This document shows, in pieces, positions 1,968 to 14,466 of a stretch of DNA of 14,466 nucleotides. The stretch's first letter is position 1. Each line of letters begins with the position of its first letter. The DNA lies in assembly GCA_016185505.1 (NCBI GenBank), contig JACPNL010000011.1, positions 1 to 14,466 on the forward strand, read 5' to 3'. Both the position numbers and the translations under genes were made by a program. The DNA is from Candidatus Yanofskybacteria bacterium. Its GTDB lineage: Bacteria; Patescibacteriota; Minisyncoccia; 2-02-FULL-40-12; GWA2-44-9. The notes beneath the pieces are model-generated. The model was not told the DNA's origin. It did no database searches and worked only from the letters and a program-made list of their open reading frames with translations.

Positions 1968-3455
1968 ATGTTCAAAGAAGGATTGTTGGACAAAATTTTA
2001 AGAAATATCAAAAAACTGATACCGAAGTCGGTATTTGATTTTTTTGCGCCGGTTTATCATGCTACTTTAGCTTATGTCGGGGCTTTTTTGTACGGATTTC
2101 CATCACGTTCAATGAAGGTCATCGGTGTGACGGGAACTAAAGGCAAGTCAACGACGGTTTTTTTGATAAGTAAGATTTTGGAGGCGGCAGAATTAACGAC
2201 ATCGGAAGGCCAAAGGACTTCCGATGTCAATGTGGAGGAGCGCCCTCCACAAGGCGGGGTGGCGGCAATCGGGTCTCTCGGATATAAAATAAAAGATAAA
2301 GAATGGCCGAATACTCTGAAAATGACAATGCCCGGCCGGTTCAAATTGCAGAAATTCCTGGCCGAAGCCAAAAGAGCCGGATGCAAGTATGTGGTTCTTG
2401 AAGTGACTTCGGAGGGCATCAAACAAAAGCGCCATATGGGAGTAAAATTTGATTGTGCCGTGTTTACTAATCTGCACGAAGAGCATATTGAAAGTCACGG
2501 TTCTTTTAAAAATTACTATAAAGCCAAGCAGGAATTATTCAAAAAGACCTCAAATATTCACGTAATTAATGCCGATGATCCCCGCGTAGATTTGTTTGGG
2601 AACTTTCCGGCAAAGCATAAGATATTTTATGGATTGGAAAAAGGGGATTTGGTTGCCGGCAAAATTCAGTCCACGGAAAAAGGAACATCATTTGAACTTT
2701 ATGGCACGCGCTTTGACACTCATTTGGCCGGAGAGTTTAATGTTATGAATTGTCTGGCGGCGCTGGCGGTGGGGGCGATGTATAAGATTGATTTGCCCGC
2801 GATGAAACCGGTTTTGGAGTCAATTAAATTTATTCCGGGAAGGATGGAGTTCATACAGCGGGAGCCGTTTGGAGTGGTGGTAGATTATGCGCACACGCCA
2901 GATTCTTTGCGAAGCGTTTATCAAACGCTTCGCAAGAATCTGGCGCAACCAACAACCAACCCCGCACCAAGCTTATCCGCTGACCGCCATTCAGAAAGGG
3001 GGCGGGCTTGGAGCGGGGCAGGCAACCGACAACCAACAACAGGAAAATTGATTTGTGTTCTTGGTGCGGCGGGCGGGGGTAGAGATAAATGGAAAAGGCC
3101 CGAATTCGGAAGAATCGCGTCGGAATACTGCGATGAGATTATTTTGACGAATGAAGACCCCTATGATGAAAATCCCCAAAGCATCATCAAAGATATTGAA
3201 AGGGGATTTTCATCGAAATTTTCAATTTTCAATTTTCAATTTTCAAATAAATCCCAATTACCAAATCACAAAATAATTCTTGACCGTCGTGAGGCAATTC
3301 AAACTGCCTTGACAGATGCCGGGGAAGGTGATACCGTTATTATCACAGGGAAGGGTTCGGAGACGTCAATGGCCGTCGCGGGGGGCAGGAAGCTCCCTTG
3401 GTCGGACAAGGATGTCGTCCGTGAAGCTCTTCGACAACAATCCTCCTGCGCATAA
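1968..3455 (+). CDS. Mur ligase family protein, MurE-like (UDP-N-acetylmuramoyl-tripeptide synthetase-like) lacking the canonical N-terminal domain; contains low-complexity in-frame insertions
   Basis: P-loop GVTGTKGKSTT, central domain VVLEVTSEGIKQKRH ... FTNLHEEHIESHG, MurE-type DYAHTPDSL motif, GAAGGGRDKWKRPEFG, C-terminal ITGKGSE. Only about 50 aa precede the P-loop, against about 110 in MurE. Confidence 0.8.
   Translation: MFKEGLLDKILRNIKKLIPKSVFDFFAPVYHATLAYVGAFLYGFPSRSMKVIGVTGTKGKSTTVFLISKILEAAELTTSEGQRTSDVNVEERPPQGGVAAIGSLGYKIKDKEWPNTLKMTMPGRFKLQKFLAEAKRAGCKYVVLEVTSEGIKQKRHMGVKFDCAVFTNLHEEHIESHGSFKNYYKAKQELFKKTSNIHVINADDPRVDLFGNFPAKHKIFYGLEKGDLVAGKIQSTEKGTSFELYGTRFDTHLAGEFNVMNCLAALAVGAMYKIDLPAMKPVLESIKFIPGRMEFIQREPFGVVVDYAHTPDSLRSVYQTLRKNLAQPTTNPAPSLSADRHSERGRAWSGAGNRQPTTGKLICVLGAAGGGRDKWKRPEFGRIASEYCDEIILTNEDPYDENPQSIIKDIERGFSSKFSIFNFQFSNKSQLPNHKIILDRREAIQTALTDAGEGDTVIITGKGSETSMAVAGGRKLPWSDKDVVREALRQQSSCA
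3217..3244 (+). repeat. 4 x AATTTTC heptamer tandem repeat inside Mur ligase CDS
   Basis: Direct reading: aattttc aattttc aattttc aattttc (encodes FSIFNFQFS). Confidence 0.9.
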
Positions 3456-4641: not shown

Positions 4642-5142
4642 ATGGATATCGGGCGGCCACAACCAAATGACGAACCGAAACAGAGCGCAGAATTGTACCC
4701 TGCGGAATTTGCCGTTAGCAAAGTCGAAGCATCGCGGTTGCTTAAAAATTCAGGCCTGCCTTGGCTTTTGATAGTTCTGGTACTGGTACTTTTGGCTTTA
4801 TCTGTAAACATATTTAGACAGCCCGTTGCCTCGGATACGTCCGGTACTATCAGTTCATCTGTCGGGCCGACACCGGCGGTTCAGCCGAGGGTCTATACTG
4901 TTTCTTACAGGAACGGTGTTTTCAGTCCCACGAATCTAAGAATTCACGCCGGCGATACGGTGAGATTCAAGAATGAGAGTATATTTCCCATAAGAATAGT
5001 CGGAGACGATCTGGTCGGTTTCGATAGTATTGGTGACGTGCCCCAAGGAAGTTTTTTTGCTTTTACTTTTGCCGCTAGGGGAATATTCAGCTATCATAAT
5101 GAGAAGAGTCTCGACGAATCAGCTACGATAATAGTTCGATAA
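4642..5142 (+). CDS. Membrane-anchored cupredoxin-like (plastocyanin-fold-like) domain protein, no obvious Cu ligands
   Basis: TM helix LPWLLIVLVLVLLALSV, then a beta-rich domain YTVSYRNGVFSPTNLRIHAGDTVRFKNES...FSYH that resembles cupredoxin_1-like domains. The function call is weak. Confidence 0.35.
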   Translation: MDIGRPQPNDEPKQSAELYPAEFAVSKVEASRLLKNSGLPWLLIVLVLVLLALSVNIFRQPVASDTSGTISSSVGPTPAVQPRVYTVSYRNGVFSPTNLRIHAGDTVRFKNESIFPIRIVGDDLVGFDSIGDVPQGSFFAFTFAARGIFSYHNEKSLDESATIIVR

Positions 5143-5156
5143 TATGCGATACCAAT

Positions 5157-5218
5157 ATACTAATTCATACTAATGATACGAATAGTGTTTCGTTCTTCCA
5201 TTAGTATAATTAGTATGC
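5157..5218. repeat. Long imperfect inverted repeat (arms ATACTAATTCATACTAATG / CATTAGTATAATTAGTAT, 23-nt loop)
   Basis: The right arm (5199-5218) is the reverse complement of the left arm (5157-5175) apart from a one-nucleotide bulge. Each arm is itself a direct repeat of ATACTAAT. Confidence 0.7.
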
Positions 5219-5249
5219 ATTCGTATATTAGCATCGCGATAGTGTTAGC

Positions 5250-5417: not shown

Positions 5418-6247
5418 TTCGATTAGGGCCCTTACTATTTATCAAGGAAGTAGTTCTTTTTGGCCTTACGCTGGCTCTTGGTCTCTATACCGCTTATTAT
5501 TACTCTTTTTACTTTACCGATCTGGTTCAGAATGGAATGGTGAATTTTACGCCGGCTGATCTGATTATTTTGGCTATTTTGTTCGTCGCTATTTTCTTTG
5601 TGGCGCGGCACAAGAGGGTTGCCCGCTTTTCCTTCAGGTTCTTTCTTATATTGATCGTCTTTTCCGGAACTCAAGTTGTGTTGGGCACTATTCTGCCTTC
5701 GCCTTGGGACTTGTTGTTTGCGGTTATCTTTACTTTAATATTCTCTATCGGTATTAATGTGTTGGTTCACAATCTAGGTATTATTCTTGGAATTGCCGGT
5801 ATTGCGGCTGTATTCGGTCTCTCTATTTCAATTGAGTTCGGGCTTGTCCTGTTGGTTGTTCTTTCTTTATATGACATAGTGGCCGTTTATGTGACAAAGC
5901 ACATGGTGACTATGGCCAGAAGTATGGTCGAAGGCGGTGCGGTGTTTGGATTTTTAATTCCGTTTGAGTTCAAAGGATTTTTTTATGGAAGAGATGAGGC
6001 AAAGGCCGGAATAGGGGAGAATTTCATGATACTTGGTTCGGGAGATATCGGATTGCCGCTTATTTTTGCGGTTTCTCTGGTTAGGGTTTCTCTGATATCC
6101 GCGATAATTACGGCCACATTCTCTTTGCTGGGATTATTTATTACTCACCTTCTTTTTATAAACCAAGGACAGCGAAGGGCAATGGCGGCTTTGCCACCGA
6201 TCGCGACACTTACAATAATTGGTTACCTTGTAACCCAATTATTGTAA
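5414..6247 (+). CDS. Polytopic membrane protein, presenilin / signal-peptide-peptidase-like (A22 family-like) intramembrane aspartyl protease candidate
   Basis: About 8 TM segments. Candidate catalytic motifs sit in TM helices: LSLYDIVAVY (YD), ILGSGDIGLPLIF (GxGD) and AALPPIA (PAL-like). Confidence 0.45.
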   Translation: MIRLGPLLFIKEVVLFGLTLALGLYTAYYYSFYFTDLVQNGMVNFTPADLIILAILFVAIFFVARHKRVARFSFRFFLILIVFSGTQVVLGTILPSPWDLLFAVIFTLIFSIGINVLVHNLGIILGIAGIAAVFGLSISIEFGLVLLVVLSLYDIVAVYVTKHMVTMARSMVEGGAVFGFLIPFEFKGFFYGRDEAKAGIGENFMILGSGDIGLPLIFAVSLVRVSLISAIITATFSLLGLFITHLLFINQGQRRAMAALPPIATLTIIGYLVTQLL

Positions 6248-6388
6248 ATTGACCTAATTATACTAATTAACCTAATTATTCTAAATAATGCCCAATACCT
6301 AATCACCAAATGCCTAAAACAGCTTGGTCATTCGGTCATTAGAATTTATTTAGGTCAATTAGATTAATTAGAACAATTAGAATAATTT
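6248..6388. repeat. About 140-bp AT-rich palindromic intergenic element (copy A) built from 9-bp TAATTNNNC units in inverted arms; MITE-like
   Basis: Left arm ttgacc taattatac taattaacc taattattc taaataat. Right arm atttattta ggtcaatta gattaatta gaacaatta gaataatt. Strongly similar to 13350-13495. It directly abuts the ATG at 6389. Confidence 0.7.
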
Positions 6389-7804
6389 ATGAAACTTACT
6401 TTCTATGGTGGTGCTCGCCAAGTGACCGGAGCCAACTACTTGTTGGAGTTGGGCCCCGACGCAAGGTCGGGGTCAACAACCAAGTTGTTGGTTGATTGCG
6501 GGATGTTTCAGGGTTCAAGGTATGCGGAAGACCTGAACTATGAAAAATTTCCATATGATCCGGCGGAGATTAATTTTATTTTTATCACTCATAGTCATAC
6601 CGACCACGCTGGACGCTTGCCCAAGTTGTATAAAGAAGGATTCAGGGGCAAGGTCGTTGCGACAAACGCGACCCTTGATCTTATCAGAAAAGCTCTGCCG
6701 GACAACTTAAGATTGATAGAACAAGAAGCAAAAGATACTGGACGAGAACCACTGTTCTCTCTTGAGAACTTGGAAGGTGTTCTTAATTTGGTTCAGGGAG
6801 TTGATTATGAGGAAAATATTGAATTAGGTGGTGGTCTTGAAGTTAAATTACATGATGCCGGACACATATTGGGTTCTTCCATCGTGGAAATACGATGGAA
6901 GAACAAATCCGAAATCCGAAATCCGAAATCCGAAAATAATTCGAAACATCTTTACTTTACCGGTGATCTGGGGAATCCCCCGACACCCTTATTGAAATCG
7001 CCTTATTACCCCAATGATGCTGATTATGTCGTTATAGAGTCCGCCTACGGTTCAAGAACTCACGAGGATAAGGCCGAAAGAAAGAATATTTTACAGAAGA
7101 TCATAATTGAAACCATCCAAAGAGGTGGTGTGCTGACGATACCTTCGTTCGCGATGGAAAGAACGCAGGAACTTCTCTATGAACTCAATGGTCTGTTCAA
7201 CGACAATAAAATTCCCAAAGTACCCGTTTTTGTCGATTCTCCTCTGGCTACCAATTTGACCGAGGTGTACAGAAAGCATTCGGATTATTTCAATAAAGAA
7301 ACTATGTATATAATTAATTCCGGTGACGATATATTTAATTTTCCCGGGCTAAAATTCACTCGTACCACCGAAGAATCAAAACAGATAAACGATGTTACTC
7401 CGCCGAAGATAATAATTGCCGGCTCGGGAATGTCTACCGGCGGCCGGATATTGCATCACGAAAGGCGTTATCTGCAGGATCCGAATTCCACTATTCTGTT
7501 CATCGGTTATCAAGTAAAAGGTTCTTTGGGCAGGAGAATTTTGGATGAGGAAAAAGAGGTCAAAATATTCGGCGAAAAAGTTACCGTGAACTGCAAAGTG
7601 GAGGCGATAGGAGGATACTCCGCTCACGCCGACAGCGAAGGGCTTTTGGAATGGGTCAAAACCGCGAACAGCGAAGGTAAATTAAAAAAGGTATTTGTGG
7701 TGCAAGGCGAAGAGGATTCCTCATTGGCTCTCGCAAGAAAAATAGAAAGAGCGCTGGAAATTGATGCGGTGGTGCCGAAGCAAGGGGAAGGGTTCGAGTT
7801 GTAG
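6389..7804 (+). CDS. MBL-fold metallo-hydrolase, beta-CASP RNA-metabolising family (RNase J / CPSF-like ribonuclease)
   Basis: HSHTDHAG (HxHxDH), LVDCGMFQG, a beta-CASP region and C-terminal GGYSAHAD. 471 aa. Confidence 0.8.
   Translation: MKLTFYGGARQVTGANYLLELGPDARSGSTTKLLVDCGMFQGSRYAEDLNYEKFPYDPAEINFIFITHSHTDHAGRLPKLYKEGFRGKVVATNATLDLIRKALPDNLRLIEQEAKDTGREPLFSLENLEGVLNLVQGVDYEENIELGGGLEVKLHDAGHILGSSIVEIRWKNKSEIRNPKSENNSKHLYFTGDLGNPPTPLLKSPYYPNDADYVVIESAYGSRTHEDKAERKNILQKIIIETIQRGGVLTIPSFAMERTQELLYELNGLFNDNKIPKVPVFVDSPLATNLTEVYRKHSDYFNKETMYIINSGDDIFNFPGLKFTRTTEESKQINDVTPPKIIIAGSGMSTGGRILHHERRYLQDPNSTILFIGYQVKGSLGRRILDEEKEVKIFGEKVTVNCKVEAIGGYSAHADSEGLLEWVKTANSEGKLKKVFVVQGEEDSSLALARKIERALEIDAVVPKQGEGFEL
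6905..6932 (+). repeat. 4 x AAATCCG heptamer tandem repeat inside MBL-fold ribonuclease CDS
   Basis: aaatccg x4 (encodes SEIRNPKSE). Confidence 0.9.
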
Positions 7805-8032
7805 AGCGAAACTATCAAATAATTTTTTACGCCTTACGCTCCATTAACAAATCTTGCAATAATTTATCATTGTTCAGACAAAAATTTAGCACCCGTTCCT
7901 CCCTTCGGGATTTTCCGGCTAAATTTTTGGAAGATTACCTGAACAATTTCTAAATTATCTTGGATTTGTGATAAAGGAGCGTAAACGCTAGAAAAATTAC
8001 TTAACAGTTTCGCTCTTTGGATGCTTTGATTT
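7803..8032. repeat. Long palindromic element C1: about 40-bp inverted arms (GAGCGAAACTNNCAAATAATTTTTTANGCCTTNCGCTCC) enclosing a palindromic cargo capped by a UUCG hairpin
   Basis: Left arm 7804-7842 and right arm 7976-8015 are near reverse complements. The inner pairs ATTAACAAATCTTGCAATAATTTATCATTGTTCAG / CTGAACAATTTCTAAATTATCTTGGATTTGTGAT and AAAAATTTAGC / GCTAAATTTTT flank TCCCTTCGGGA. The start overlaps the TAG stop of the MBL gene. A second copy lies at 9695-10109. Confidence 0.7.
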
Positions 8033-9631: not shown

Positions 9632-9694
9632 TTGGTCAAGCCAGCTGAGCTGGCTCAACCCCACTAAATTTTGAGAAAAGGCATACTCTTGCAG

Positions 9695-10109
9695 TAGAGC
9701 GAAACTGCCAAATAATTTTTTAGCCTTCCGCTCCAGGAGAGCAGGATTCAAACTCCCATCGTCTTGAGAGACCCAAAAATGAGATGATTTCTTTGGTGTG
9801 ACGACGAAGATGTAGTTTAACACTACTTCGAGGAGGCACAACAAAGAAAGCGTCCATTTTTGGGCTCCCCCTTGGGGCGGGGCGGACTTACTTATCTGCT
9901 TCGTTGTCCAGATTCCTTCGGAATCGAGGATCCTCGATTGCTTCGCAATCGGGACTCGTCGCTTACGTACCGTTAAGGTACGCATCACTCCTCGCGCCTC
10001 GCATATAAGCAAGTCCGCTCCCGCTCAATTGATGCGAGTTTGAATCCTGCTCTCCTACGTCAACGCTAAAAAATTATCTGACCAGTTTCACTCTCTGGAT
10101 GCTTTGATT
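9695..10109. repeat. Palindromic element C2: same outer arms as C1, carrying a different, nested cargo
   Basis: TAGAGCGAAACTGCCAAATAATTTTTTAGCCTTCCGCTCC (9695-9734) matches the C1 left arm. ACGCTAAAAAATTATCTGACCAGTTTCACTC TCTGGATGCTTTGATT (10062-10109) matches the C1 right arm and tail. Confidence 0.7.
9735..10056. mobile_element. Nested 322-bp element with perfect 21-bp terminal inverted repeats (AGGAGAGCAGGATTCAAACTC ... GAGTTTGAATCCTGCTCTCCT), highly structured interior; MITE-like or structured ncRNA
   Basis: Perfect TIR 9735-9755 / 10036-10056. The interior holds several perfect hairpins: ATTCC-TTCG-GGAAT, CGATTGC-TTCG-GCAATCG, GTACC-GTTAA-GGTAC and the CGAGGATCCTCG palindrome. No ORF. 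Confidence 0.55.
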
Positions 10110-10324
10110 CAATCGATGATGTTGGAAAGAAACAAACTATTCATTCTCAAAATTTAGAGGGGTCTCGCTCCTCAACGCTAATTTTTCCGTGTTTTCCGAT
10201 TTTTCAGCGCTTCTGTGGTTAAAATTACCCAACGGCCTCGCTCCTCGGACGTTTTTATTTAATCGACGCAACAAGGGGTCTCGCTCCTTTGTGTTGTTGT
10301 GCTTGGTATTTTTGATGGGGCAGG

Positions 10325-10354
10325 TTGACAAAGCATAGCCCAATATGCTACAAT
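10325..10354 (+). promoter_or_regulatory. Near-consensus sigma70 promoter for nfeD-flotillin operon (TTGACA - 18 bp - TGCTACAAT) with palindrome AGCATA-N6-TATGCT in spacer
   Basis: TTGACA at 10325-10330. TACAAT at 10349-10354, preceded by an extended -10 TG. Inverted repeat AGCATAGCCCAATATGCT in the spacer. Confidence 0.55.
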
Positions 10355-10440
10355 ATTTTGGAAATCTCGAGTTGCCAGAAGGGCTCTCGAGATGGCAGTT
10401 CGTTCACAACTGTGGAGAGCCACGGAGAGAGGAAGGGGAT

Positions 10441-10968
10441 ATGCCACTGTTTATCGTCGCCGGGCTCATGGGGTTCCTGTTCTTCGTTGGGGCACTGATT
10501 TTCGGTGACCACGACGTCGGGCACGACCATGACTTTGATGGCGACCATGACCATGGAGGGTCGAGCGTGTTTTCGGTCTTCAATGTGTCATGGTTTCTCA
10601 TCGGGTTCGGCGGAATGGGGGCGGTTATCAGGGCCAATGACGTGGGGATGCCCGGAAGCACGATGTCCGGTCTCGCGACCGGTATTGCTTGCTGGGGCCT
10701 CGCTTTCTGCGTCATGCACCTGCTTGCAAAACAGCAGGGTGATTCAACCGTGACAGTCGCACGCATCATGAATGCGACTGGTACGGTCGTGATGTCTATT
10801 CCCGCAAACGGGGTGGGCAAGGTCCAGTGCAGTGTGGCCGGAAGCTTGCAAGAGTTTCTGGCTCGCTCGACGACACCGGTTTCGTTGTCGGAAGGTTCTC
10901 AAGTGAGAATCGTCGGCGATGCCGGTGGTGTGTACTTGGTGGAAGCTCAAACACAAGGAGGCAGGTGA
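10441..10968 (+). CDS. NfeD-like membrane protein (short NfeD / YuaF-like, partner of SPFH-flotillin)
   Basis: Start at the ATG at 10441 behind GAGGAAGGGG. The ATG at 10345 lies inside the -10 box. Two TM helices, a His/Asp-rich loop (DHDVGHDHDFDGDHDHGG) and a C-terminal beta domain. The stop overlaps the SD of the downstream flotillin gene. Confidence 0.65.
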   Translation: MPLFIVAGLMGFLFFVGALIFGDHDVGHDHDFDGDHDHGGSSVFSVFNVSWFLIGFGGMGAVIRANDVGMPGSTMSGLATGIACWGLAFCVMHLLAKQQGDSTVTVARIMNATGTVVMSIPANGVGKVQCSVAGSLQEFLARSTTPVSLSEGSQVRIVGDAGGVYLVEAQTQGGR

Positions 10969-10969
10969 C

Positions 10970-11269
10970 ATGGAGTTTTGGAAACAGCTCTCGGCAAACC
11001 TCGGATGGGTTATCGGAACAGTCCTACTGTTCATAGCCATCCTTGGTTCTCTTCGTTACGCGGCAAGCCGGTACAAGAAAGTGCCGCCAAGCCGCGTCGG
11101 GATCATCTACGGCCGTAAGCAGATCTATGAGATCCCGCAACAGGATGGAACCGTAAAGCAGGAGAAGCTTGGATTCCGCCTGCTCACCGGCGGCGGCGCG
11201 CTTGTCCTCCCGTTCTTGGAAGACTATGCCGAGTTGGACCTAAGCGCTCGACGTGATGATCGACGCTAG
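10970..11269 (+). CDS. Flotillin (SPFH-domain, FloT/YuaG-like) N-terminal fragment - interrupted by +1 frameshift near 11243-11256
   Basis: Strong SD AAGGAGG (10954-10960). MEFWKQ...VLLFIAILG TM helix, then GRKQ...FRLLTGGGALVLPFLEDYAELDLS matching flotillin (RGGGTFVFPVFEEVEKLSLEVM). The frame then runs into RRDDRR-stop. Confidence 0.7.
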   Translation: MEFWKQLSANLGWVIGTVLLFIAILGSLRYAASRYKKVPPSRVGIIYGRKQIYEIPQQDGTVKQEKLGFRLLTGGGALVLPFLEDYAELDLSARRDDRR

Positions 11270-12701
11270 AGGCACAGCTACTGTCGTGATCGGAACCGAT
11301 ACGTCGAGTCTCATCACTGCCGCTCGCAACTTCGAAGGTAAGAAGGAACAGGATATCAACCAGATTGCCCGGGAAAACCTGGAAGGCCAACTGCGGTCGA
11401 TTCTCGGCACCTTGACGGTTGAAGACCTGATCGGTGAGCGCAAGAAGCTCAATGAGGCGGTCTTGGAAGGTGCGGAGAGTGAGCTTCTGAAGCTCGGTCT
11501 GCGCATTTCCATCCTGACCATTCAGGAGATCACTGACCAGGTTAAGTACATCGAATCGCTGGGCAAAAAGCGTACCGCCGAAGTTCAGCGGGATGCTACT
11601 ATCGGCGAAGCCGAGGCGCAAAGCAAAGCCAAGATCGCGGCAAGCAACGCCACGAAAGAAGCCGAGACTGTCGCCGCGCAGAACGAAGTCAAGATCGCCG
11701 AGGCCAAGAAGGAGCGTGACGTTCAAGTTGCGCAATTCAAGGCATTGACCGATCGCGAAAAGGCGATTGCCGAACAGGCAGGCGCCATCGCGGCGGCCGA
11801 AGCGGACAAGACAGTGCGTCAGAGGAAGGTTGAGGCCGAAGCGGCCGAGACCACTGCGCGTATCCAACTCGCCGATCAGGAGACTGCTCGTGTCGAGAAG
11901 GAACTGCAGTTCCAGGTCATCAAACCGGCCGAAGCGCAGAAGCAGGCCGCGGTTATCAGGGCCGAGGGAAACAAGCAGACAGGTATCCTCGACGCCGAAA
12001 CCAAGAAGAGGCAACAGGTCATTCAAGCTGAAGCGGCTTTCGAAGCAGCTGCCAAGCAGGCCGACGCGACTCGAACCAAGGCTGAGGCTGATGGTGATGC
12101 TGCGGCAGCAATCGGCAAGGGCGACGCCGAAGCCGTACGTCTAAAGCTCACAGCTGAAGCCGATGGCGAGAAGGCAAAGCGTCTTGCCGCCGCCACGGGT
12201 ACCGAAGCTGAACTGCGGGCGGCTGCATCCGGCAAGGAAGCAGAACTGCTTGCAGAGGCACGCGGTGCTGAAGCAAAGCTCCTCGCAGAGGCCAAGGGTA
12301 AGGAACAGCTGGCTCTCGCGCTTGCCAAACTGGATCAGACAGGCAAACTTCTACAGGTGCTCGACGCAGCCCCCAAGGTTGCAGAGGCCCTGGGCGAAGC
12401 TCTCGCCAAGGCGCTCGGGCCCGACGGCCTTGCCAACGTGTTCGGCCAGATGGCCGCTCCGCTCGGCAGTGTTGACTCGATCCGGATGTATGATTTCGGC
12501 GGGAATGGCCATAACGGTAATGGTGCCGGATCGTTGGCCAAGTATGCCAACATCACACCGGAGCTGTTCTTCAATTTCGTCTCGAAGGCGACGGCACTGG
12601 GTTTCGGGTCTTTGCTCGAGAAGGTCGGGCTGACCTCCGAGATTCTGGACGACATGACAACTTCGGTTTCAACAGGGGCCGATGCATCCGAATCGAAGTA
12701 G
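11253..12701 (+). CDS. Flotillin C-terminal portion (SPFH core, EA-rich flotillin coiled-coil repeats, C-terminal domain); continues the 10970 frame after +1 shift (frame open from 11244)
   Basis: LDVMIDARGTATVVIG...ITDQVKYIESLGKKRTAEVQRDATIGEAEAQSKAKIA aligns with B. subtilis FloT. Long AEA/EAKA repeats follow. Confidence 0.8.
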   Translation: MMIDARGTATVVIGTDTSSLITAARNFEGKKEQDINQIARENLEGQLRSILGTLTVEDLIGERKKLNEAVLEGAESELLKLGLRISILTIQEITDQVKYIESLGKKRTAEVQRDATIGEAEAQSKAKIAASNATKEAETVAAQNEVKIAEAKKERDVQVAQFKALTDREKAIAEQAGAIAAAEADKTVRQRKVEAEAAETTARIQLADQETARVEKELQFQVIKPAEAQKQAAVIRAEGNKQTGILDAETKKRQQVIQAEAAFEAAAKQADATRTKAEADGDAAAAIGKGDAEAVRLKLTAEADGEKAKRLAAATGTEAELRAAASGKEAELLAEARGAEAKLLAEAKGKEQLALALAKLDQTGKLLQVLDAAPKVAEALGEALAKALGPDGLANVFGQMAAPLGSVDSIRMYDFGGNGHNGNGAGSLAKYANITPELFFNFVSKATALGFGSLLEKVGLTSEILDDMTTSVSTGADASESK

Positions 12702-12714
12702 CTCGTTCATTCAT

Positions 12715-12748
12715 AGAGGTCGGGGTAACAACCCCGACCTCTATTCTT
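12715..12748 (+). terminator. Terminator-like 12-bp perfect hairpin after flotillin
   Basis: AGAGGTCGGGGT-AACA-ACCCCGACCTCT followed by ATTCTT (weak U-tract). Confidence 0.5.
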
Positions 12749-12764
12749 AGGAGAGGAGAAAACA

Positions 12765-13220
12765 GTGAAGTACCAACTCACAGAAGGTATTCCGGACGCT
12801 CTCGTGATTCACTGTGCCGATCCGCGTTTTCAGGAAGCCTTCAGAGCCTACCTGAAGAATGATCTCGGTATACGTATGCCGATGATCATAGCGTTGCCTG
12901 GCGTGACCAGCCACTTCGGGATGCAGATGATGTTTCCGAAGAACTGGTACACAGTAAGGTCACACCTCAAGACCATGACAGATCGTCACGATGTGGCACG
13001 AGTCGTCCTTATCAATCACGACGACTGCAAGGGCTACGCCAAGATTGCCGATAAGCTTGGTGGTCTGGTGAAAGTTCCAGAGTGGCAGCGCAAGCACCTC
13101 CATGGCCTGGCAGAGTTTATCAGAAAGGAATATCTGCCTCACGCCTCTTTTGAACTCTACCAAGCGCATATCGTTGAGAAAGGCAGTGTGCGTGAGGTCG
13201 AGTTCGAGAAAATCTTGTAG
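12765..13220 (+). CDS. Hypothetical protein with beta-carbonic-anhydrase-like CxDxR ... HxxC motif arrangement (HCADPRF ... NHDDCKGY)
   Basis: GTG start behind AGGAGAGGAG (12749-12758). 151 aa. The spacing of the Cys-Asp-Arg and His-x-x-Cys motifs resembles the zinc ligands of minimal beta-CAs. The function call is tentative. Confidence 0.5.
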   Translation: MKYQLTEGIPDALVIHCADPRFQEAFRAYLKNDLGIRMPMIIALPGVTSHFGMQMMFPKNWYTVRSHLKTMTDRHDVARVVLINHDDCKGYAKIADKLGGLVKVPEWQRKHLHGLAEFIRKEYLPHASFELYQAHIVEKGSVREVEFEKIL

Positions 13221-13263
13221 GTTCTACGCCGCCGGTCTGATACTTACAACGGCTAACGCCGAC

Positions 13264-13312
13264 GCCCCCTTCGGGGGCCAGAGGGGGACACGTGTCCCCC
13301 TTTTAATTTTTT
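13264..13312 (+). terminator. Tandem intrinsic terminators (CCCCC-UUCG-GGGGG hairpin, then GGGGGACAC/GTGTCCCCC perfect hairpin + TTTTAATTTTTT)
   Basis: 13264-13278 GCCCCCTTCGGGGGC. 13283-13300 is a perfect 18-bp palindrome followed by a T-run. Confidence 0.8.
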
Positions 13313-13349: not shown

Positions 13350-13495
13350 CCCAATTATTCTAATTATACTAATTATTCTAATTACTCTAAATAATGACTA
13401 ATCCCCAATCATTAAATGACCAAATCGATTTAGTCATTGAGTCGTTGGGATTTATTTAGGTCAATTAGGTTAATTAGAATAATTAGGTTAATTTA
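13350..13495. repeat. Copy B of the about 140-bp TAATTNNNC-unit palindromic element (see 6248-6388)
   Basis: ctaattatactaattattctaattactctaaataatg ... atttatttaggtcaattaggttaattagaataattaggttaatt. The central part contains the near-perfect palindrome AATGACCAAATCGATTTAGTCATT. Confidence 0.7.
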
Positions 13496-13537
13496 TTGCC
13501 CTGTTTGGTTCCTGTGCTTTGTGTTTTAGCTATGTAA

Positions 13538-14466
13538 GATTTTAAAATCAACAACATCCTTATCCCCGAAGAGCTTCCTCTTATCGCTCTGAAAAACACC
13601 GTCTTATTCCCAAAGGCGGTTATTCCGCTTATCGTTCAGCGGCCCAAATCGGTCAGCGCTTTGGAGTACGCTCATTTAACTGATCGGCTGGTGTTTTTTG
13701 CCACCCAGAGAAGCACCGAAGACGATGTGAACAAAAAAGATATTTTCACTGTGAACAAAAAAGATATTTTCACTACCGGCGTTATCGGCAGGATAATCTC
13801 CGTTCTCAAATTACCCGACGGTTCTTCCAAAGTTGATGTTGAGGGTTTGGTCAGAGCAAGGATAACGGAAATTACCAACGAAGAACCATTCTTCAGGATA
13901 AAGGCCGCTCCGTTCTCGTTGACGGTCAGGGATAGTTTAGAAGAAAAAGCGCTCCTTCGGAAAGCCATAGAGCAGTTTCGAATGATCTCGGAAGTAAGAG
14001 CATTTCCAACAATCCTTCCCGAAATTATATATATGATGTCGCAGATCAAAGACACCGAGCATATTATAAGTTTGATGGCGGTTAATTCCGGTTTAGAAAT
14101 AGAAGATCAGCAAAATGTCCTTGAAATGGAGAGCGCGATAGACGCCTTACGCCAACTAAACACGTATCTGGCCAGAGAGTCGGAATTATTGGAAGCCGAG
14201 AAAAAAGTCGCTAAGGAAACCAAAAAACAACTCGGCAAGATGCAGAAGGAATTGTTTTTGCGGGAGCAACTCAAAAGCATAGAGAAAGAATTGGGCGTTG
14301 ATGACGAGAAAGGCGAAATGGAAACGATAAAACACAAGATAGCCGCCGCGGGAATGCCCAAAGAAGTTGAAGAAAAGGCAAGCAAAGAACTTCATCGTCT
14401 AGGCAAAATGCCGCCATTCAATCCCGAGGTCTCATATCTTCGCACCTATCTTGACTTGATGGTTGA
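13538..14466 (+). CDS. lon: ATP-dependent Lon protease, N-terminal (LON substrate-binding) domain onward; 3' partial (runs off window); start codon unresolved
   Basis: LPLIALKNTVLFPKAVIPLIVQRPKSV ... LKLPDGSSKVDVEGLVRARI is the canonical Lon N-domain. The frame is open from 13538 to the window end. There is no in-frame ATG, GTG or TTG before the LPL motif. The ATG at 13532 is followed immediately by TAA. Confidence 0.8.
13727..13774 (+). repeat. Perfect 24-bp tandem duplication inside lon (VNKKDIFT x2)
   Basis: gtgaacaaaaaagatattttcact occurs twice in direct tandem. Confidence 0.9.

Follow-up and report, generated by a model that had tools for sequence, protein, structure and literature searches.

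We found two copies of a foldback element, at positions 6246 to 6388 and 13353 to 13494, in the window analysed here, i.e. the complete 14,466-bp contig of a metagenome-assembled genome (MAG) of Candidatus Yanofskybacteria (Parcubacteria, Candidate Phyla Radiation, CPR). The contig was assigned to this MAG by homology search; an exact look-up of its beta-CASP protein gave no entry. Our analysis points, with moderate confidence, to the two copies being gene-less selfish insertions akin to the intervening sequences (IVSs) of 23S rRNA genes. They would belong to a foldback cassette family that is widespread in Patescibacteria/CPR and tolerated by virtue of the hairpin that its arms can form. The copies belong to one family with longer, gene-bearing members, to which they are related by internal deletion. 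The family occurs widely under CPR labels, is present or absent at an orthologous site, and sits flush with stop and start codons. Its copies are more alike within an assembly than between assemblies, they lack target-site duplications, and their arms are made of invariant hexamers separated by free spacers that are not mirrored from arm to arm.

Two copies of one element in the window

The initial annotation had proposed that the two copies are homologous, and this was borne out. Positions 6247-6390 and 13353-13496 are 81% identical over 144 nt in a repeat search of the window, and the mean column identity is 85% in a MAFFT alignment of the two copies. Tandem Repeats Finder gave period-9 arrays in all four arms (6254-6284, 6346-6387, 13353-13390 and 13452-13493), and the pattern TAATTNNNCTAATTNNNCTAAATAA fits all four arms exactly, with 0 matches expected from 200 shuffles of the window.

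Both copies share one layout. From the outside in, there are the terminal AAATT, four 9-bp (C)TAATT-NNN units, the junction TAAATAATG (TAAATAAT) and a core, followed by the mirror half with TTTATTTAG, NNN-AATTAG units and the end AATTT. The core is ~55 nt of degenerate 7-8-bp units in both copies (GCCCAAT, ACCTAAT, GACTAAT, CCCCAAT and similar). The four 9-bp units per arm are thus as first described. The further claim that the arms are reverse complements of each other holds for the consensus but not for the variable triplets, the order of which is unmirrored; in copy 1 they read GAC/ATA/AAC/ATT on the left and ATT/GTT/AAT/GAC on the right. The features of the two copies are as follows.

6246..6388, no strand: copy 1, whole element, with termini AAATT...AATTT, spanning the full gap between the SPP-like and beta-CASP/MBL genes
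6245..6247, + strand: TAA stop codon of the SPP-like gene, overlapping the terminal AAATT and opposite the start-codon region in the predicted RNA hairpin
6247..6281, + strand: copy 1 left outer array, AATTGACC TAATTATAC TAATTAACC TAATTATTC, i.e. four CTAATT-RNY units
6282..6302, + strand: copy 1 junction motif TAAATAATG, in which the ATG at 6288-6290 is the equivalent of the ATG that starts the four-helix-bundle gene in the long forms
6291..6344, no strand: copy 1 inner core, degenerate 7-8-bp units (GCCCAAT, ACCTAAT, CACCAAAT...) with an imperfect mirror of these; the gene body is absent from this stretch
6345..6388, - strand: copy 1 right junction TTTATTTAG and right outer array GTCAATTAG ATTAATTAG AACAATTAG AATAATT T
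6389..6391, + strand: start codon of the beta-CASP/MBL gene, 1 nt past the terminal AATT and paired with 6243-6245 at the base of the predicted hairpin
13353..13494, no strand: copy 2, whole element
13353..13387, + strand: copy 2 left outer array, AATTATTC TAATTATAC TAATTATTC TAATTACTC
13388..13459, + strand: copy 2 junction TAAATAATG and remnant frame, with the ATG at 13394, reading MTNPQSLNDQIDLVIESLGFI*; its MTN is that of the N-termini of long-form proteins
13451..13494, - strand: copy 2 right junction TTTATTTAG and right outer array GTCAATTAG GTTAATTAG AATAATTAG GTTAATT T

Copy 1 does abut the ATG of the beta-CASP/MBL ribonuclease gene, as the initial annotation stated, but it abuts the stop codon of the SPP-like membrane protease gene equally and so fills the whole gap. 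Copy 2 does lie upstream of lon, but its end is ~45 nt ahead of a lon reading frame that lacks a canonical start, and it begins 50 nt past an intrinsic terminator (13280-13303).

Gene-bearing relatives of the window copies

Longer members of the family have an arm - open reading frame (ORF) - arm organisation, seen in L055, L059, L065, L101 and L117 (L numbers denote the loci compared), with an ORF of ~120 aa whose start codon is the ATG of TAAATAATG. The ORF matches the profiles PF05635 ('23S rRNA-intervening sequence protein', E 2e-12) and TIGR02436 ('four helix bundle protein', E 2e-19). It also matches PDB entry 2RLD (E 4e-18), which contains five chains of that sequence. The four-helix-bundle protein has no match among the PADLOC defence models.

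Since these members came from a search with a DNA pattern, we also searched metagenomes with an alignment of the long-form proteins, which removes this ascertainment, and obtained at least 588 relatives. The flanks were tested in 72 metagenome loci that were chosen by protein alone and had sufficient flanking DNA. Their flanks are inverted repeats of each other, with a median local score of 26 versus 12 for a direct-repeat control and 11 for shuffled flanks; a score of at least 25 is reached in 46 of the 72 loci, versus 1 in the direct control and 0 after shuffling. Hence the PF05635 gene family generally sits between inverted arrays of short tandem repeats. Period-9 CTAATT arrays are found in 39 of the 72 loci, with a median GC of 0.40. 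The other 33 have a median GC of 0.54, and 28 of them carry period-7 arms, for example GAATGAC, AAATCCA or GAAATTC. The 9-bp CTAATT layer is the version of low-GC loci, and this GC level matches that of the CPR genome loci.

When the window copies are aligned to long forms (L223, L171, L205, L184 and L159), their left halves match the sequence ahead of the ORF plus its first ~25 nt, and their right halves match from shortly past the end of the ORF match through the right arm. The CTAAATAAT(G) junction and a ATTGGGATTTATTTAG-like mirror junction are common to the window copies and the gene-bearing members. After the junction ATG, copy 1 reads ATG CCC AAT ACC TAA (MPNT*); this frame and the MTNPQ... 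of copy 2 resemble the MTN, MPN and MSN N-termini of long-form proteins. Alignment to both ends of the long forms identifies the window copies, by sequence comparison, as internal-deletion derivatives. No PF05635 match is present anywhere in the window, where the copies hold just 4- and 21-codon remnants, and the copies are therefore filed as ORF-less. A full-length cassette then consists of an outer inverted array of ~4 CTAATT-RNY units of 9 bp or, at times, 7 bp, the CTAAATAAT(G) junction, a few degenerate heptamers, the ~120-aa gene and the mirror arm.

Conserved and free positions in the arms

In the protein-chosen loci the unit is nearly fixed over six positions (C 0.97, T 0.96, A 1.0, A 1.0, T 1.0, T 1.0) and then reads R, N, Y. 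Steps between units are 9 bp in 120 cases and 7 bp in 60. With the two steps mixed in this way helical phasing is not conserved, and the earlier proposal of an array phased at one helical turn finds no support, as one third of the steps are 7 bp, not 9, and 9 bp is itself out of phase with 10.5 bp per turn. The spacer vocabulary is small (ATT, T, AAC, GAC, GCT, ATA, GTT, GAT, ACT, AAT).

Spacers at mirrored positions are identical in 17 of 187 cases, versus 23.7 +/- 4.5 with shuffled partners. An arm also aligns no better to its own partner than to a foreign one, with scores of 9.2 versus 8.6 in the core (p=0.095) and 16.8 versus 17.8 in the arrays. We thus found no compensatory pairing between arms in the CTAATT family, by either the mirrored spacers or the complementarity of own and foreign arms. 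The hexamer box is thus under constraint as sequence, and pairing at the variable positions is not kept up. The invariant CTAATT, the unmirrored spacers and the modal 4+1 units per arm would be expected of an array read by a sequence-reading protein, and an array of protein-recognition sites, which the initial annotation had raised, is a viable interpretation of near-invariant boxes with variable, unmirrored spacers.

Distribution of the family across genomes

We scanned one genome per species for 185,579 species with a 19-base arm pattern and found it at at least 117 loci. Among the matches listed, 105 loci have arrays of at least three units. Of these, 81 are from CPR-labelled genomes, 12 from MAGs labelled only as an unspecified 'bacterium' and 12 from other-labelled MAGs. 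The CPR labels comprise Doudna-, Staskawicz-, Yanofsky-, Zambryski-, Harrison-, Vogel-, Falkow-, Magasanikii-, Moranii-, Roizman-, Curtiss-, Woese- and Shapiro-, Peregrinibacteria and 'Saccharibacteria'. The cultured organisms among the matches listed (Haemophilus, Acinetobacter, Bacillus and Aquimarina) have chance coding matches only, with no arrays. A phage origin was considered and rejected: 35 viral-contig matches to the pattern include none with foldback architecture and are mostly in recurring, apparently coding sequence, and two of them are plain TAATTATTC tandem runs in giant-virus bins.

The genome loci contain 78 paired elements of 59-254 bp, with a modal four units per arm. The similarity between cores is 0.62 for copies in the same assembly versus 0.54 for copies in different assemblies (p=3e-5), and pairs reaching 0.7 make up 29% versus 4.6%. 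Long and short forms occur together in three assemblies (JBAZQX, CAYJSA and CAZLVB). The unit number is variable, with runs of identical units in L087, L088 and L114. Judged from these comparisons and from the states of the SPP/beta-CASP junction in relatives (below), the copies show proliferation within genomes together with gain, loss or replacement, and they appear to be many per genome, in dispersed dozens.

Two observations on individual members may be added. L038, on a contig binned as Woesearchaeota, holds a complete element with a core 86% identical to that of L050 from a Patescibacteria bin of the same study, which reflects either mis-binning or transfer between CPR and DPANN. Small GC-rich hairpins (CCTGCCTGCCGGCAGGCAGG; CCGCCTGCC...GGCAGGCGG) are nested in the CTAATT arms or cores of L012, L020, L031, L042, L051, L054, L058, L069 and L076, and look like a second, smaller palindromic insertion landing in the elements.

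Placement at gene junctions

The initial annotation had proposed to test whether copies always sit ~0-50 bp upstream of start codons. The arms meet gene ends much as they meet gene starts: among the arms with at least three units (n=190), 96 point toward a gene start and 92 toward a gene end. The start codon is 0-15 nt past the terminal AATT in ~2/3 of the start-facing arms (mode 7). Most of the stop-facing arms have the stop codon across or directly at the end, from -6 to +8, and TAA-ATT and AAT-TGA are common forms of this. The first base beyond AATT is T in 67% of the ends, and the true termini are therefore AAATT...AATTT. By their flanks, 53 paired elements lie between tandem, 5 between divergent and 3 between convergent genes, and the median spacer not belonging to the element is 15 nt in the tandem pairs. 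Elements occupy 18% of the tandem junctions (76/421), 11% of the divergent ones (7/65) and 17% of the convergent ones, so no junction type is strongly favoured and divergent pairs are not enriched.

The ORF-less copies are randomly oriented relative to their flanking genes (19 co-directional, 20 opposite), and 94 of the 120 ORF-bearing copies (78%) run in the direction of their neighbours. The latter value equals the background of 76% for any adjacent genes and is thus not evidence of dependence on read-through. The difference between the two classes suggests that insertion is orientation-blind and that the gene, where present, is selected like an ordinary gene.

It is unlikely, in our view, that the element is a regulatory DNA module kept by the host, with the CTAATT arrays serving as operator or nucleoid-protein sites or as outward-facing promoters for the adjacent genes. 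Such a module would account for near-invariant hexamers with variable, unmirrored spacers and for start codons within 0-15 nt of the element ends. Outward-reading TTTAGR-N17-NATAAT matches are present in both window copies, and the divergent pairs L068 and L069 have a start codon within 1-20 nt of the element at either end, which leaves no room outside the arms, so that the promoters must lie within them there. These two pairs show that promoters can be harboured by arms in some contexts, as the promoter module of the initial annotation would have it. In relatives, TTGATT-N16/17-TATTAT/TAAACT/TAAAAT is found 8-10 nt before the lon ATG (L118 12580-12620, L120 12830-12860, L122 8690-8720); short leaders are therefore normal in the clade, which fits a module so close to start codons and suggests that mRNA leaders are very short or absent in the window's clade.

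However, a promoter module does not explain why the arms face gene ends as often as starts, and the two classes are alike in sigma-70 promoter-likeness as well, as judged by -35 and -10 hexamers 16-18 nt apart (7.62 start-facing and 7.27 stop-facing, p=0.12), with both barely exceeding the 6.99 of shuffled sequence. The top promoter match in copy 1 is directed antisense into the upstream gene, the ORF-less copies take either orientation, divergent pairs are no more often occupied than tandem ones, and with 7- and 9-bp steps in one array no fixed helical phasing can hold. The orthologous junction also works without the element, as overlapping genes (below). An argument from missing Shine-Dalgarno motifs was dropped: their background use is only ~13% in these loci by crude gene calls, and their absence beside the elements is therefore uninformative.

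Turnover at the SPP/beta-CASP junction

The junction occupied by copy 1 could be followed in related Yanofskybacteria with syntenic contigs. It is empty in L122/L123 (81% beta-CASP identity), where the two genes overlap as ATGA. Six other lineages each have a different foldback there, with a unit vocabulary of its own mirrored in both arms. The inverted-repeat finder missed the foldbacks of low complementarity in these syntenic loci, and those were read by eye and by folding.

L118, 9828-10000: CACAAAA units
L120, 9886-10009: TTTCCAT/AATTGGT units
L239, 1335-1500: CCAAAT/CACGAAT units
L240, 1391-1500: AATTTTA units
L241, 1297-1467: CTAAACY/CTAATCT units, resembling the window element (score 30)
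L242, 1416-1500: AAAATGA units, unreliably delimited

The complementarity of an insert's own two arms is 19-30 in 6 of the 7 inserts, versus a mean of 10 and a maximum of 18 across lineages; the seventh, the unreliably delimited L242, has 8. In 5 of the 6 other foldbacks the hairpin is predicted to have its base 5-11 nt ahead of the ATG. The varied foldbacks at one junction reflect either a hot spot with replacement or concerted evolution in place.

Both window copies are predicted to form strong RNA hairpins, at -35.1 kcal/mol (z -5.3) for copy 1 and -41.3 kcal/mol (z -6.5) for copy 2; folded as DNA, copy 1 gives -18.5 kcal/mol (z -4.6). In the predicted stem of copy 1, 6242-6251 pairs with 6383-6392, so that UAA faces AUG at the base, where pairing between these two codons is predicted. 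Such hairpins could be what the host selects, as an RNase III processing site that separates cistrons and yields short-leader mRNAs, as a coupler or as a bidirectional terminator, with the sequence family being secondary. We regard this as improbable, although a number of observations would suit it. Of the paired elements with classifiable flanks, 53 of 62 are between co-directional genes, and in three convergent gene pairs the element is the sole separator. A foldback is found at the SPP/beta-CASP junction in 7 of 8 lineages (the window included) with different sequences, and the high own-arm complementarity there, L242 apart, would be expected of a maintained stem. Random orientation suits a symmetric structure, and the stems of IVSs are RNase III substrates (PMC4990558).

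Against a host-selected structure, the CTAATT family has no compensatory change, and a foreign partner arm fits as well as the own one. The stems, rich in AU, contain 3x3 internal loops in a regular pattern and lack a GC-rich stem plus U-tract; the terminator scan found no intrinsic terminator (G+C-rich stem and T-run) inside either copy, the nearest being the one at 13280-13303. A scan of the window with Rfam 15 gave 0 matches at the gathering threshold and, at E<=1, only sub-threshold look-alikes of plant miRNA precursor hairpins. Finally, an empty site with overlapping genes exists.

Two further foldback sequences in the window are recorded here. A foldback at 5146-5237 has 38-nt arms that are 84% complementary and built of ~9-bp TACTAAT-containing units; it begins 4 nt past the stop of the ORF at 4642-5142 and probably belongs to the same broad class of repeat-built foldbacks. 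The second is a remnant of another foldback type.

13511..13529, + strand: remnant arm CCTGTGCTTTGTGTTTTAG, like the right arm of the CACAAAA-unit foldback of L118 at the SPP/beta-CASP junction

A model for proposed selfish insertions at stop/start junctions

The reading that we favour, i.e. a selfish insertion of the general kind of the 23S rRNA IVS, may work as follows. The element would be co-transcribed with its neighbours, and its arms would fold into a hairpin. The foldback would leave the two flanks adjacent, so that the upstream stop codon stands beside the downstream start codon in the predicted structure. A ribosome terminating on the upstream gene might then unwind the stem at its base and free the start codon, and the translational coupling of the ATGA overlap at the empty site would be kept by the hairpin. 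Such coupling, as we propose, would explain why a compact genome tolerates insertions exactly where a stop codon meets a start codon, why the element can lie either way round, and why neither a Shine-Dalgarno motif nor a promoter is needed.

The CTAATT boxes would be recognised, as DNA sequence, by a protein acting in trans to spread or maintain the element. A candidate for this sequence-reading protein is the family's own four-helix-bundle protein, because 2RLD contains five chains and the S23p homologue of Xanthomonas was reported to be a homopentamer (PMC4990558).

Several points weigh against IVS-like selfish insertion. No enzyme is associated with the element in the loci examined. We know of no transposition or spreading mechanism for PF05635 proteins or IVSs. 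Probes for rRNA in all fetched loci found no element inside or adjoining a probe-detectable rRNA gene, and the link to IVSs therefore comes from the architecture and the shared gene family. At the same junction 6 of the 7 relatives have foldbacks that differ in their vocabulary, and these could represent evolution in situ of one old functional structure. The empty and filled genomes are too diverged (81% protein identity) to place the exact insertion junction. No compensatory pairing between arms was seen within the family, which speaks weakly against selection for an RNA structure.

An ordinary MITE (miniature inverted-repeat transposable element), mobilised in trans by the DDE transposase of an insertion sequence with the same terminal inverted repeats, is a poor candidate, although the initial annotation was right in much of what it called MITE-like. 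The elements have the size, the inverted ends, the multi-copy intergenic spread and the higher within-genome similarity of a MITE; they are short, gene-less derivatives of a longer element with the same ends, and their presence is polymorphic at an orthologous site. However, target-site duplications, the sign by which a plain MITE was to be known, are absent: in 67 elements the length distribution of flanking direct repeats is that of shuffled flank pairs. The gene-bearing relatives among the matches listed all encode a PF05635 four-helix-bundle protein, not a transposase, though no whole-genome search for same-ended transposases was made. The arms are also modular arrays from a small unit vocabulary rather than a fixed inverted-repeat sequence. 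Least probable of all is that the palindromes are not mobile and arise and remodel in place by slippage and hairpin-templated repair, with the four-helix-bundle gene as an occasional passenger: variable unit numbers with identical-unit runs, one junction with a different vocabulary per lineage and in-frame heptamer runs inside window genes would fit, but one and the same 9-bp unit, with its junction motif and core, is seen at many unrelated junctions and in many CPR lineages, the alignment of the window copies to the ends of long forms extends past the repeats, and subfamilies within an assembly share non-repetitive core sequence.

Beyond the selfish insertions proposed for the window, we offer a broader speculation that is tentative and perhaps rather doubtful. 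PF05635 (Avd/S23p-like) genes together with inverted arrays of 7-9-bp units might form one unrecognised class of self-propagating cassette that has no transposase, integrase or reverse transcriptase. The units, CTAATT-RNY in CPR and heptamers of the GAATGAC type elsewhere, would be recognised by the oligomeric protein, and the ORF-less copies would be satellites dependent on it in trans. This class would unite the rRNA IVSs, the CPR junction foldbacks and possibly the short tandemly repeated repetitive (STRR) sequences of cyanobacteria.

If true, it would account for the repeated colonisation of CPR gene junctions. CPR genomes are tiny and tightly packed, yet foldbacks hold a noticeable share of their gene junctions; our 14.5-kb contig has at least three such junctions, i.e. 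those of the two copies and of the related foldback at 5146-5237. If the selfish-insertion reading is right, the PF05635 proteins, to which to our knowledge no role outside diversity-generating retroelements has been assigned since the rRNA IVSs were described, would gain a genomic context and a testable partner DNA. IVS-like insertions would extend beyond rRNA, and the model suggests a simple rule of tolerance for compact operons, a foldback that rejoins stop and start codons. The invariant CTAATT box is a ready probe for binding studies. On the practical side, the element may cause CPR MAGs to be mis-assembled and start codons in them to be mis-called. The interest of the family is thus in its spread over many CPR lineages, its conserved 9-bp box, its precise fit to junctions and the handle that it gives on PF05635 function.

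Other features of the window

The lon frame that follows copy 2 has no canonical start: 13532-13549 reads ATG TAA GAT TTT AAA ATC (M * D F K I), with an in-frame ATG-TAA at 13532-13537. In relatives lon begins with MPQS(D/E)FKINN, and the MPQS start is lost in the window. A perfect 24-bp tandem duplication (VNKKDIFT twice) is found in lon at 13726-13773. The window lon may be a pseudogene, may use a non-canonical start or may reflect an assembly error.

A 214-nt near-perfect hairpin at 7803-8016 starts from the stop codon of the beta-CASP gene (RNA -74.1 kcal/mol, z -8.3), and its 29-nt end, GTAGAGCGAAACT..CAAATAATTTTTTA, recurs at 9694-9722. Nested inverted repeats at 9658-10163 mark the left edge of a GC-rich (55-61%) block of ~3.3 kb (10000-13300) encoding Band7/SPFH and other proteins. 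Among these repeats is an inverted fragment pair (9735-9760 / 10031-10056) that resembles a tRNA 3' end; a tRNA/tmRNA scan of the window gave none. The block is absent between the LOG and lon genes in the syntenic L118, L120 and L122, and is therefore probably an acquired island.

In-frame inserts of short repeats occur within genes at 3217-3279 and 6905-6942. The insert in the Mur ligase gene has AATTTTC four times followed by AAATCCCAATTACCAAATCAC, and that in the beta-CASP gene has AAATCCG four times, in a loop that varies from 2 to ~40 residues among homologues. These units are similar to the element's inner core and to the sequence ahead of some four-helix-bundle ORFs. The palindrome ATATGATATATCATA, at 1351-1395 and 1861-1898, brackets a Trp-repressor-like (PF01371) gene and is kept upstream of the L118 orthologue (L118 5551-5590); it is a candidate operator for autoregulation.

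Comparison with known systems

The closest known system is the IVS of 23S rRNA genes (Coxiella, Leptospira and others). The Coxiella IVS has a 28-bp terminal stem and 2-4 tandem heptamers just before the start codon of its S23p (PF05635) gene, and is excised by RNase III (PMC4990558). The rRNA genes of CPR contain PF05635 ORFs and many short ORF-less insertions at the classical IVS sites (PMC11270868). Our elements share with IVSs a long stem from terminal inverted repeats, the same protein family in the loop, short tandem repeats of variable number ahead of the ORF start, ORF-less versions and a sporadic distribution, and both are without a known mechanism of spread. They differ in lying between protein-coding genes and not in rRNA helices, in having an extra outer layer of 9-bp CTAATT-RNY units, and in that the CPR foldbacks are apparently present in many copies per genome.

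Bacterial MITEs (Correia/NEMIS, RUP, ERIC and BOX) are palindromic, intergenic, multi-copy elements of 100-200 bp that are often co-transcribed with their neighbours; BOX elements are modular and vary in the number of their internal units, and Correia elements are RNase III substrates that can also provide promoters. Our elements are likewise short (<300 bp) and multi-copy with terminal inverted repeats. Unlike MITEs, they have no target-site duplication and no transposase-bearing parent among the gene-bearing relatives found, and their arms are arrays of an invariant 6-bp box with free spacers.

Runs of 7-11-bp units, direct and inverted, are read as sequence by small oligomeric proteins in the omega heptads of pSM19035 and in parC/ParR of R1. 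Those iteron- or centromere-like arrays occur once per replicon beside par or regulatory genes, whereas the CTAATT arrays are dispersed, apparently in dozens, and without partition genes. The STRRs of cyanobacteria occur in intergenic regions and inside a helix of an RNA gene. The core heptamers CCCCAAT (13404-13410) and TTGGTCA (6325-6331) of our elements are identical to STRR heptamers, and we know of no description that links STRRs to PF05635 cassettes or to a foldback architecture. The Foldback (FB) transposons of eukaryotes have long inverted arms of short tandem sub-repeats in variable number, with or without an internal coding region; they are from another domain of life and differ in size and coding content, and no homology is implied.

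In the literature on CPR MITEs and palindromic elements and on links between STRRs and four-helix-bundle proteins, we found no description of the CTAATT foldback family, of PF05635 cassettes with flanking repeat arrays outside rRNA genes, or of a link to STRRs. The parts are already known, i.e. IVSs, PF05635 proteins and palindromic intergenic repeats.

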